DNA from: Octopus vulgaris
Lineage: Eukaryota
Direction: 5' to 3'
Assembly: GCA_951406725.2 (NCBI GenBank)
Contig: OX597814.1
Location: 80,724,001 to 80,788,000, forward strand
Length of the DNA stretch: 64,000 nt
Under the pieces are notes generated by a model. That model was not told where the DNA came from. It saw only the letters and a list, made by a program, of their open reading frames with translations, and ran no database searches. The translations under genes and the position numbers were made by a program. Below, piece after piece: positions 27,171-64,000 of the stretch; the stretch's first letter is position 1, and the number at the start of each line of letters is the position of its first letter.

Positions 27171-28303
27171 TATTATTATTTACAATTTACAATAATATAA
27201 TATTATATTATTAGTAATATTATAAGATTATAAACTGCAAACATACAAAATAAAAAAAAAGGATGATATAAACAAAGTATGATATGAATTGAATTGACTT
27301 GAACTGGTTTCAGCTCATGAGCTGTGGCCATGCTGGGACACCATTATTTGAACAAAATAGGACTCTTGGCATTCTTCGCTCAAAAGGTGGAATTGAACCA
27401 CTCTGACATAAGTCAGCTACAGGTTTGAAGCCTGCACTCCAGACCACTGAAGCTCATGAAATATATGAAATATTCATTTTTATTATGGGCCCAAAATTTG
27501 TTCAGTAGGAGACTAGTCAATTACACCAATTTCAGTGCTTGACTGGTTCTTATTTTATGGAACTCAATAAGATGAAAGGCAAAGTTGACCTTGGTGGAAT
27601 TAGAACACAGAACATAAAACCAGAAGAAATGCCAGTAAGAATTTTGCCCAGCAGGCTAATCATTCTGCTAGCTCAATTCTACCATGAAATATGAAATATT
27701 AGTTTCAAATTTTTCCACAAGATCAGTAATTTCAGAGAAGAGGGTAATTTATTTACATTGATCCCAAAGGAATGAAAGGCAAAATCAACTTCAGCAGAAT
27801 TTGAACTCAGAACATAAAGATGGATGAAATGCTGCTAAGCATTTTAACTTGTGTGCTAATGATTCTGCCAGCTTGTCACCTTATGAAATATGAAATATTG
27901 GTTTCAAATATAGGCACAAGGCCAGCAACTTCAGAAATTATATCAACCCCAGTACTTAACTAGTACATATTTTATCAACCCTGAAAGGATGAAAGGTAAA
28001 AATCAATTTGAACTCAGAACATAAAGACAGATGATGAAGTATTAAAAGCATAAATCAAATAGCATTTTGAAACACTTGCTTATAATAATTTGAAGAAGTA
28101 AAAATAAATAAGTAATCTCTGTATGATGTTTTTTCTTTCTCTTTTATATGAGAAATGAATAAACCAATGTTTAACTTACTTGTATAGAAAAACAGAAATG
28201 CATCAATTAACTTTGTTTACTCAACGATGGTTATGGCATGATATAGTCAGAGTTCTTGGTTTTGAAATTATGAGAAGACTATGCATGTGCACCTTTCTCA
28301 ACT

Positions 28304-52975: not shown

Positions 52976-53491
52976 TGTTTCATTATCTATGTCAGAAGAG
53001 AAGGAATAATGTTCATAACCATTCCAGGCCCAGCAAGTCTACTGAGATAGATATGATTAGTGTCCATAAACATGTATAAGAGGGAAAAAATTAAATAAAA
53101 AGAAGCTAGTCTGAGTAAATGGTGATCATCATAATCATCATCATCATTATTTTAGTATCCACGTTTTCATGCTTGCATGGATTAGATGGAATTTGCTGAA
53201 GTGAATTTTTCTACAGTTGGATGTCCTTTCTATTGCCAACCCTCACCTGTTTCCAAGTAAGGTAATATTTCCCCATGACTAGACATGTTTACATGGAAGA
53301 TTGGAAACGAAACACTCTGCTTGCACAACAGTGATACTTGTCTACAACTATCATACAATGTCATTAACTTTACTACAACCATCAGCATATTTTCATTGTT
53401 GATATTATGAGTTTGGAAACAGAAATTTATGCATTACTTGTTCATTTAAGCACATTACATCATAGATGTGTTGTTTGTTTACATTCTAGAT

Positions 53492-54059
53492 CAGTGATTC
53501 TCAACTAGGGTCCATATAAGATTTCTGGAGGTCCATGCAAACAAACTAGGAAAAAGGGGATCCACTGTAGTATTTTAATCCTTTAGCATTCAGATTATTC
53601 TAAAGTTTATGTATTTACACTATGTTAAATTAATCATGCATTATATCATGGCTTTGAGATTTCCATGATGTGATTGTTTACTTTTAAAATAACACTATAA
53701 GGTAGCTATGAAAGACCATGTCTGACCAGTTTGAAGATAAAACAGGTAGAATATTTTGGCTAGATATGGCTGGTTTAAACACTAAAAAGTTAAAGGTCAA
53801 TGAGAATATTTTCCTTTAAATGCATTTATTGCAAGAAACAACTAAGCTTCTTTCTCAACATGCTTCCAGCCACTGAAACATGTTCTCTCAGAAAGTAATA
53901 TTGCAAACCTAATGAGGGAACATATTGAAAAACAAAACAGGAATTTTGAAAGTATTATCTATAAAATTAGTTTTTAAACATTGAATAGCTGTGGGAGTCC
54001 ACCAGAATAAAATAGTTATCAAAGGGATCCATACGTAAAAAAATGGTTGATAATCACTG
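53492..54059. mobile_element. hAT-type non-autonomous transposon with a nested TTAA MITE
   Basis: TIRs cagtgattctcaac/gttgataatcactg; exact 8-bp TSD TTCTAGAT (53484-53491, 54060-54067); nested MITE 53575-53793. Confidence 0.9.
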
Positions 54060-55169
54060 TTCTAGATCCTTCCCTTGCTGACTCTGGAAAATCTTAGAGG
54101 AGAACTTTTATAATTTTGATGGTGTGGCCCTTTATGCTGAATTATGTACATTTAGTGGCCTTATATAGTAGTAAGTTTTTACAATAGCAAATTTTTCACA
54201 TACTGCTCACACTTCATGTGCAAAGGCAATTAGTTTACTCATTTGTGTTTCTTGTTGACAGTTCCCATAGACCTTAGATAGTCTGCCACGGAATTATAGT
54301 TGATGGTTAGTGAATTTATTATTCACTTTGCACTTAATACTAGTGTCTAGTTGTCTTGTATATTTTTTGAGTCTCTTGATACTTGTTTGGAGATAGGTCA
54401 TCCATTTTAGTTGATTTTTTTCCTCCTTATCAATCTTTGTTACTCTCATTTGTTGATGAATGATAATTGCAGGATAGCATAGATGATATAGTAGAATTTT
54501 CAATGCTCGAGAGATGTAAGATTATTGATTTTCTATGTTTTGAATACTGTCCCCCAAAACTTCTGCAACTGATACAAGCCTGGTAAAAATTGGTTATCAT
54601 TTTTGAAACAAAGATATGATGATGCACCTTTTTTATGGAAGGCTGTAGCTGTAATCAAGCAATGGAAAGTAACTAAAGCATGTGGAATTATTACTATATA
54701 TACCATGGCTAGTGAGGAAACTGGGTTCGGCAATCACAAATTGCAGAATTACTGAAGGATCGAAAAGCCATTGCTTAGATGTATAGGGGAAGAAGAAGGA
54801 AGGTGACATGCACAGACTGGTGCTGTTATAGTAACCAGTCTGCTTCATGTAGTTCCTTTCCATCATTTAACATCCAATTTCCATCCTGGCGTCGGTTGGA
54901 TGGTTTGACTGGAACTGCTAAGCCAGAGAGCTGCACCAGGTTCCAATCTGGTTTGGCATGGTTTCTACAACTGAATGCCCTTCCTAGTACCAATAATTCC
55001 AAGAGTGTAATAGGTGCTTCTTACACAGGTGCAATCTAAATGACACTGGCAATAGCCACGATTACAGTTTCTTGGCTTGACGGGTCATGGTCACTTGTCA
55101 ACTACCCCATGAGGCCTCACATTTGAAGGTCATACGTTATACTTCCCCTCCATGTCCCTCACCTCTGTG

Positions 55170-55206
<37 letters not shown>

Positions 55207-55265
55207 TGTTCGTTTGTTTTCCACCTGCCTTCGTCTTTTGTTTATTTTCATAAAGCTTTCCGTTA

Positions 55266-55338
<73 letters not shown>

Positions 55339-55454
55339 ACATATAAGGGACGGCCATAATAGGACATCCAACTCACTAGAAAGAGCAGCCAAACTCCAAA
55401 CCACTAATTGTTGTAATTCTGAAATGGAAAGAGAAATAAAAACGTTTACCCTCT

Positions 55455-55548
55455 CCTTTCTGGACTATGCATAGTTTCAGCAATCATTTGTAAATAAATT
55501 AATTTTATTTATTTATTTACCACTGGCGTTGCCTCGTCAGCAGAAAAG
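55455..55548 (-). ncRNA. Canonical type I hammerhead ribozyme
   Basis: cttttctg CTGACGA ggcaa..gtaaataaat..atttatttac..ttgct GAAAC tatgcata GTC cagaaagg; all core nucleotides and three stems present. Confidence 0.88.
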
Positions 55549-55699
55549 CCAAGGACTAACATATATCCACGAGGCGATGATAAACATGCCTCGAGTCTCT
55601 ATGCCATAAATTTTCAAAATCCACCACGCTCGCGCGGTTTACTCAGCAGTAAATATAAACTGCCGATTTAATTTCAAAATTAACCAAAAAATCATTAAT

Positions 55700-55777
55700 T
55701 AATAAATTTTAGGGTAGCAAAAAATTCTAGAAAAATTTTTCTAGTATTTTTCTAGAATTTTTTGCTACCCTAAAATT

Positions 55778-55782
<5 letters not shown>
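55700..55782. repeat. 36-bp perfect inverted repeat at the end of the HHR-bearing element
   Basis: taataaattttagggtagcaaaaaattctagaaaaa and its reverse complement. Confidence 0.9.
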
Positions 55783-57185
<1,403 letters not shown>

Positions 57186-62949: not shown

Positions 62950-64000
62950 TATTATTGTTTAAAATTTCTGTACAGCGTCAAGCCAATTTTTCTATGGGAA
63001 GTAACCCCAAAATTTGTGTGTTCAGCATTGGCCATTTTCCATGACTCAATGGAGTTGAAAGTTATACTCTGAAACTGTCACCAGTATCATCGGTGGAATC
63101 ACCATTGTCTCAAGTCATGTAAACACCAGTCATGTCACCACAAAATGTGGCAACAAAAAAAAGGAAAAGAAATATGGATGTACCTAGTTTGTCTACCGGT
63201 GAGTCACTGGTAACTCCTGAAAAATGAATTTGCTGGCAGCCTCGTCAAAAAAGGAGTTAAATCTGAAAAGAAATATTGAAGTACCCAGTTTGTCTACCAG
63301 TGAGTCACCTGTGACTCCCGGAGAAAAGAATTCATCAGCAGTGTCACCTAAAAGACTTAAGTTTTGCAGCCGCAGCTGGCAAGAAAAGAAAAAACATAAC
63401 TATAGAGAAAAAGGAACTTGCCAAGTATAAAGAGATGCTAAGAAAGGAGGGGTCAGAGGTTAAAGTGGCCTCTCCAAACACCATAATGAAAAACACAAAT
63501 AAAACAACTATTGTGTACAAAATGTTCAACATAAAAGCAAAGAAATCGATAAGGTATCCGGAGAAGCAGTGGAGGAGTGTCTAAAGCTGATATGGCAAGA
63601 TATCACTTACCTAACGAGAGGAAAAAGTTTCTGATGATTGAAGTAAAGATGGCTATGGAGGAGAAGGCGAAACATCACTCCAAACCAACCTTAAAAACAG
63701 AAGTAATTTTCCTCCCCACTTACAAGGGGAGGAGAACTTCAAGGATAAAGATAGTGAATATCCCACTGGAAGTGGATGCTGCCTGGTTAGTGACAACCAC
63801 AACCATAGACCTGGAGGAGAAGATTACACTCCTCCAAGCTACAGTTACAGAAAAACAGATTTGGCAGGGGCAAAGCTTCAATACATACCAGAGGTGATTC
63901 ATGTGGGAGAGGCCAGATTGGTCATCTCTGTAGAAGGATGTAAGCCCAGATGCTTTAACTGCAGCAAGATAGGCCACATAAAGGCCAAATGCAACCCTCC
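62950..64000 (+). mobile_element. L1/Tx1-clade LINE 5' region, decayed ORF1 with CCHC zinc knuckle
   Basis: KTEVIFLPTYKGRRTSRIKIVNIP..; in another frame EGCKPRCFNCSKIGHIKAKC (CX2CX4HX4C, 63951-63992); runs off the window. Confidence 0.8.

Follow-up and report, generated by a model that had tools for sequence, protein, structure and literature searches.

Retrozymes with hammerhead ribozymes are a known kind of element, and Penelope-like elements have been proposed as their helpers on the basis of co-occurrence and pseudo-LTR similarity (PMC7229834; bioRxiv 10.64898/2026.07.22.740005). Insertions of Penelope-like elements are described as 5'-truncated, partially tandem, accompanied by inverted pieces and biased toward microsatellites (PMC8557442), and for the anole enzyme initiation is reported at two internal sites, both located downstream of the hammerhead (PMC11167929). 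Tails, initiation and inverted insertions are not discussed in the main text of the retrozyme preprint; it reports that one of nine predicted retrozyme dimers was cleaved (bioRxiv 10.64898/2026.07.22.740005), which calls for caution on activity. An octopus repeat family, one copy of which lies in the window analyzed here (the whole stretch of 64,000 nucleotides), fits the sequence criteria of non-LTR retrozymes. It probably represents such a family, with a unit of ~470 nt that Penelope-like elements would likely copy as a self-cut RNA circle.

The motif that led to this family occupies 55455..55552 on the minus strand, a span that includes the 5' strand of a proposed pseudoknot, and every hammerhead part named in the first-pass annotation was located there. 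Stem I pairs CUUUUCUG (55548-55541) with CAGAAAGG (55462-55455) through eight pairs, seven Watson-Crick and one G-U. The core CUGACGA (55540-55534) leads into the stem II strands GGCAA (55533-55529) and UUGCU (55483-55479), which are extended by an AU-rich 10-bp hairpin (55520-55490) whose length differs widely between copies, and these are followed by the core GAAA (55478-55475) and a 12-nt palindrome (55475-55464) that forms stem III either as a 4-bp hairpin or as a 12-bp dimer duplex. The GUC ends at C17 (55463), so that the predicted cut falls between 55463 and 55462, within the segment 55455..55463 that also holds the 3' strand of stem I. With CUGANGA, GAAA and UH arranged around three stems, and with stem I open, the motif belongs by sequence to type I.

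A type I descriptor matched the window once, at this hammerhead (55548-55455), and on Markov resamples of the window it matched 1 of 300 in its loose form and 0 of 300 in its strict form; the motif is confirmed as real and beyond chance. A chance match would agree with the failure of Rfam to score the motif, as no hammerhead match was returned at the gathering score or at E<=10, and with nearest-neighbor folding, in which the hammerhead fold of the window copy lies 4.5-5.6 kcal/mol above the minimum. The Rfam miss probably reflects the long stem II insert, and the folding energies do not separate the window copy from other copies of its sub-family (median 6.1 kcal/mol above the minimum in 39 rows). 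Given the 0-1 matches in 300 resamples, and the core conservation and covariation across sub-families described below, chance is scarcely credible as an explanation. Two other classes of match were discarded: Rfam miRNA matches at 55700-55782 were far under their cut-offs and reflect the hairpin located there, and a weak match at 53215-53252 (E 0.023) was taken as chance.

The hammerhead had also been called fully canonical. However, the first stem II pair of the window copy is a G10.1-U11.1 wobble, with U at 55479 in place of the family's C11.1, and the hammerhead is therefore not fully canonical. A G10.1-C11.1 pair is given as conserved in hammerheads (PMC4209133), and most copies in the family have it (76 of 100 aligned rows). 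Among 27 close copies, position 55479 is C in 22, T in 4 and G in 1, and the change from C11.1 to U is of the CpG type. A G-U at 10.1-11.1 is still a pair, which lowers the expected rate while hammerhead membership is kept.

A search of the 2.8-Gb genome with the block 55335-55737 gave 2577 first-look candidates, of which the best 40 were scored and were 90-100% identical. Exact matches numbered at least 189 for a 22-nt core motif and at least 251 for a second motif, with none in both reversed controls; all family counts are lower bounds. The copy number, which the first-pass annotation had left to such a search, is that of a dispersed repeat with hundreds of copies genome-wide. Six sub-families were sampled, from A, which includes the window copy, to F, down to ~71% identity. 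In five natural tandems the unit measures 465, 468, 470, 474 and 478 nt from cut to cut and contains one hammerhead, so that the head-to-tail units with one type I hammerhead each that characterize non-LTR retrozymes are present at the level of the family. The GC content of the 468-nt unit is 0.32, within the low-GC character of retrozymes. No reading frame is kept across sub-families, indicating that the unit is non-coding, and a remnant ORF was sought in it and rejected on the same ground. Insertions are mostly dispersed and span 0.3-2.5 units, most of them with fewer than 2 units each rather than long arrays.

Pieces of the family also occur in contigs of four runs guessed to be RNA (X1, X5, X16 and X17), in which ends, strand and circles are not readable. 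The unique flank 54000-55140 had contig coverage at other repeats alone. In runs X5, X16 and X17 the family occurs in contigs labelled as two other organisms (B and C), and words of it occur in a third (D); it is therefore likely older than this species. No published account of it was found for octopus or cephalopods, for which supplements or repeat databases may hold one. The same genome contains several unrelated hammerhead-like families with a long AT-rich stem II and a mostly palindromic stem III (L134-L145), recognized with a loose hammerhead pattern that gave 567 matches versus 64 in controls. Minimal Penelope-type hammerhead motifs were seen in other repeats (L183, 363-390, plus strand; L193, 1031, minus strand).

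Selection was examined in 57 copies obtained by whole-unit BLAST, after 3 of 60 had been dropped as parts of the same insertion. Variants shared by four or more copies occur in none of the 14 core columns versus 111 of 353 other columns (Fisher p=0.007), and the family ribozyme is under selection; a core no better conserved than its flanks, the outcome that the first-pass annotation had named as counting against it, was not what the family displayed. Core position 7 varies freely (C/A/U/G in 28/18/10/1 of the 57). Private changes affect the core and the rest of the unit about equally (2.5% and 2.1%), and selection therefore acts on source lineages, not on inserted copies. In a 100-row alignment, about half of whose rows came from core-containing patterns and whose rows are related by descent, so that shuffle counts do not amount to probabilities, 94.4% of cells pair. 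Covariation is seen in stems I, II and III; at two positions of stem I, C-G replaces U-A, in 12 of 98 rows at one and in 28 at the other.

Two sub-families depart from this picture. In C (L100, L110, L121 and related copies), A-A occurs at 10.1-11.1 in 11 of the 100 rows, and in F, which is 71% identical, the core variant U4C is present in 21 of 32 copies; strong cleavage may therefore not always be needed. The C copies with A-A also carry C-G as the first pair of the pseudoknot discussed below. Family F (L146-L175, e.g., G000:C1:117494379-117494899) is a young sister whose best copies are 97-98% alike.

The anatomy of the window copy is that of a single compound insertion. Its main segment (55335..55737, minus strand) represents ~0.87 of the 465-478-nt unit and lacks ~60 nt that come after its 3' end in full units. 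That end, referred to as b, lies ~+130 from the cut and runs into (TA)n (55335..55345, minus strand). A second piece of 37 nt (55746..55782, plus strand) is inverted and 5'-truncated and stops at the other fixed 3' end, a (~+227), and the (TA)n target flanks the whole on the left (55264..55334) and right (55783..55837). The first-pass annotation had reported a perfect 36-bp inverted repeat at the end of the block; the repeat exists, with arms of 37 bp (55700-55736 paired with 55746..55782), and it is produced by the inverted second piece rather than being a feature of the element. The block was rightly described as CpG-retaining, with an observed/expected CpG ratio of 1.02 versus 0.25 in the window, and the placement of the motif in a young mobile block is supported.

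The window copy differs from the sub-family A majority at 10 positions, C11.1 among them. Having a single ribozyme and less than a full unit, it is unable to release RNA of unit length. Cleavage of this copy in vitro may still occur, and its sequence marks it as an ordinary decaying copy with a weakened stem II. A host function, such as cutting a transcript that runs through it, could be argued from the intact core and from the capacity of all three stems to form. Such a role is very improbable for one of hundreds of young copies that carries these 10 differences from its sub-family, in a family where private changes strike cores at the background rate and with no gene recognized nearby (148 of the 217 open frames of the window were scanned, and none matched at the Pfam curated cut-off). 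Several other features of the window were recorded. An abundant short-repeat fragment lies at 54860-55010, where contig depth is high in four runs. An open frame at the window end (63642-63998, plus strand) has a weak zinc-knuckle match below the cut-off (E 0.0015) and is possibly the start of a retroelement. A tRNA-Sec match at 27378-27461 (minus strand) scores 59.9 bits against a cut-off of 47; ARAGORN calls no tRNA there, and the acceptor stem is mismatched to the model.

Traces of how the copies were made were sought in the ends of 103 segments from 90 loci. The 3' ends of 95 of the 103 segments fall in two short windows, near +130 and +227 from the cut, while the 5' ends are scattered. 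TA-rich flanks adjoin the 3' side in 68 and the 5' side in 12 of the 103, a head-to-head inversion is present in 28 of 72 insertions, and 27 of the 103 segments are longer than one unit. These ends match those published for Penelope-like insertions and were likely made by a Penelope-like enzyme, for which the two fixed 3' ends would be the sites where reverse transcription starts. A MITE or other DNA transposon was rejected, as the inverted repeat, instead of bounding both ends of the element, is at one end only and its length is different at every insertion.

The same end anatomy would be expected if the copies were 5'-truncated insertions of an autonomous Penelope-like element whose pseudo-LTR is the unit, and Penelope-like elements are described as carrying hammerheads in their pseudo-LTRs (PMC4209133). 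What lies upstream of the copies, however, is another unit and not an ORF, and 61 of 116 segments exceed one unit. No RT frame is continuous with the unit in the loci scanned, which were the best 40 of more than 2000 candidates per search, a depth at which a rare RT-bearing parent could be missed; nor was an RT/GIY-YIG frame found between pseudo-LTRs in these loci, and the unit was rejected as an autonomous element on this basis. RT fragments beside L002, L042, L059 and L127 read as separate insertions, a reading checked at the sequence level for L042 and L127. Copies that form pairs at kilobase distances (L121 and L122) have no RT frame between them, nor do two copies separated by 3.7 kb. This origin of the unit is accordingly considered improbable.

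Whether the template is circular bears on the role of the ribozyme. A set picked by BLAST from A, C and F favors long copies, and its C ends are less sharp. In this set, 109 of 111 crossings show no gap at the cut site, and a single 5' end among 116 falls within 5 nt of the cut. A further check used 30 copies selected by nothing but the 126 nt that follow the cut; the window copy is one of these, and two pairs among them come from shared insertions. Of the 30, 29 run through the cut and one breaks a few bases upstream. A conserved core together with the absence of stops at the cut is most simply explained by a ligated circle as the template.

Seamless passage of the cut site fits an uncut tandem transcript as well as a circle. 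The family might thus be a non-autonomous, Penelope-dependent repeat made from uncut multimers, in which the hammerhead rarely cuts, or serves another step, and no circle forms. The prevalence of U4C in family F is in line with this account, as is the report that a Penelope-like enzyme used uncut RNA in vitro as its main template and did not need the hammerhead (PMC11167929). Nevertheless, the core is selected in A and C, which an uncut route does not need, and U4C, which lowers activity in vitro, is described as permitting viroid infectivity and keeping enough activity in vivo (PMC3088659); moreover, related animal retrozymes are reported to yield abundant circles (PMC7229834). Copying from uncut transcripts is thus unlikely, though it is the most serious of the alternatives. 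In 32 of 37 cases, tandem units of one insertion diverge from each other by less than their median divergence from other insertions; this measure was abandoned as a test for circles, as it cannot separate a circle from a tandem source.

Under the preferred reading of a retrozyme copied from circles, we infer cleavage, circle formation and the identity of the helper alongside the observed anatomy, core selection, covariation and end statistics. Tandem source copies would be transcribed and then cut by the hammerhead into unit RNAs, which are predicted to be ligated into circles. A Penelope-like reverse transcriptase/endonuclease would likely copy the circles into (TA)n sites, with copying starting at one of the two fixed internal sites (~+130 and ~+227 from the cut), passing the cut site and stopping at random; a second piece in inverted orientation would often be joined to the first. 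One such product would be the window copy, comprising 0.87 unit and the 37-nt inverted piece and now decaying.

A feature absent from the first-pass annotation is a proposed pseudoknot between the internal loops of stems I and II. Its putative strands are UUGGC (55552-55548, minus strand), which belongs to the internal loop of stem I and lies on its 5' side, and GCCAG, in the stem II internal loop (55527-55523, minus strand); the last C of UUGGC competes with the eighth pair of stem I. A loop1-loop2 helix of 4-5 bp probably docks the two stems. Its covariation support is moderate. The helix pairs in 94.9% of cells of the 100-row alignment, where the first pair is U-G in 72 rows, U-A in 13, C-G in 11 and other in 1. 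When rows from D-F were added, 117 of 130 could be anchored and 13 could not, and the anchoring by construction leaves the central two G-C pairs invariant. In the 117, the next pair inward is C-G in 92, U-A in 9, U-G in 7, C-A in 6 and other in 3, and the inward U-A has three origins on the tree, at least two of them on well-supported branches. Family F has lost the outer pairs (U-U 22, C-U 18), and one C clade has a C-A mismatch in 4 of its 8 rows. Whether a weak U4C core can be rescued by the pseudoknot is a question for which family F provides a natural test.

The suggestion that stem III can fold as monomer or dimer gained ground on its dimeric side. Stem III is one of three different perfect 12-nt palindromes among the sub-families, all with a UGCA center. 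The A palindrome forms a duplex of -15.9 kcal/mol and is not stable as an isolated hairpin, in keeping with the dimer cleavage described in PMC4209133. The ribozyme may accordingly cut best as a dimer joined through the palindrome.

A candidate helper is present in the genome. Young RT elements have open frames of 753-782 codons, TA targets and inverted pieces, and thus autonomous Penelope-like elements, as expected beside retrozymes, occur in the same genome if their inferred clade label is correct. A GIY-YIG-like stretch preceded by a Cys linker points to the Neptune group. Across 10 RT loci, no similarity to the unit was found beyond a nested copy in L193. The very young RT element with these intact frames (L186-L192, e.g., G000:C6:62859000-62865000) has in its 3' region a hammerhead-like motif that the scan did not score; on visual inspection it was taken for a U3-A8 variant whose stem III is palindromic.

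The single window copy matters little; it is the insertion ends of the octopus family itself that carry the Penelope signature. As the genome also contains RT elements that are young and intact, the pairing of retrozyme and helper can be tested in vitro, and the covarying sub-families could serve directly as controls for dimer cleavage and the pseudoknot. A bolder proposal, which we hold tentatively and at somewhat less than even weight, is that the family preserves in the genome a record of circular retrozyme RNAs being copied by Penelope-like enzymes, in the form of fixed internal start sites, uninterrupted copying across the ribozyme junction and copies of more than one unit, and that its hammerhead has a kissing pseudoknot between two internal loops that is strong enough to let the sister family tolerate U4C. 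If the record of circle copying is true, it would fill a step of the retrozyme cycle that the retrozyme papers cited here propose and would define a signal in the RNA by which a Penelope enzyme is loaded with cargo.

Compared with hammerheads of known tertiary architecture, the octopus motif resembles those in which a pairing between the stem I and stem II regions has been predicted (~40% of cases, with a 5-bp example in human; PMC3088659). It would place both strands of the probable pseudoknot in internal loops of long stems, unlike other pseudoknot-stabilized hammerheads described in PMC3088659 and PMC11300833, and it is not the pistol-like PK hammerhead of the latter. The ~500-bp pDo500 repeat of cave crickets is alike in unit size, in its conserved and covarying hammerhead and in its single and double forms; according to its description, however, pDo500 is a satellite (PMC2837043), whereas the octopus family appears to be dispersed by retrotransposition.

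With Penelope-like elements, the family shares two fixed 3' ends downstream of the hammerhead cut, as reported for Poseidon PAc (PMC11167929), and the AT-rich targets, partial tandems and inverted 5'-truncated pieces reported for Neptune and Naiad (PMC8557442). It differs from them in having no RT/GIY-YIG frame and a full-size rather than minimal hammerhead, and its two ends are ~100 nt apart versus the 30-40-bp tail given for Penelope-like elements. The closest likeness is to the metazoan non-LTR retrozymes of coral, mussel and axolotl, which are likewise described as non-coding tandem units with one type I hammerhead (PMC7229834) and share with the octopus family low GC, the lack of LTR features and the presence of Penelope-like elements in the genome. 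The octopus unit falls inside the 51-972-bp range given in bioRxiv 10.64898/2026.07.22.740005 and, at 465-478 nt, exceeds the length of the invertebrate retrozyme examples described (170-400 nt). To judge from sequence, it is set apart from these metazoan retrozymes by its dispersed insertions, its long AU extension of stem II and its probable Watson-Crick pseudoknot.
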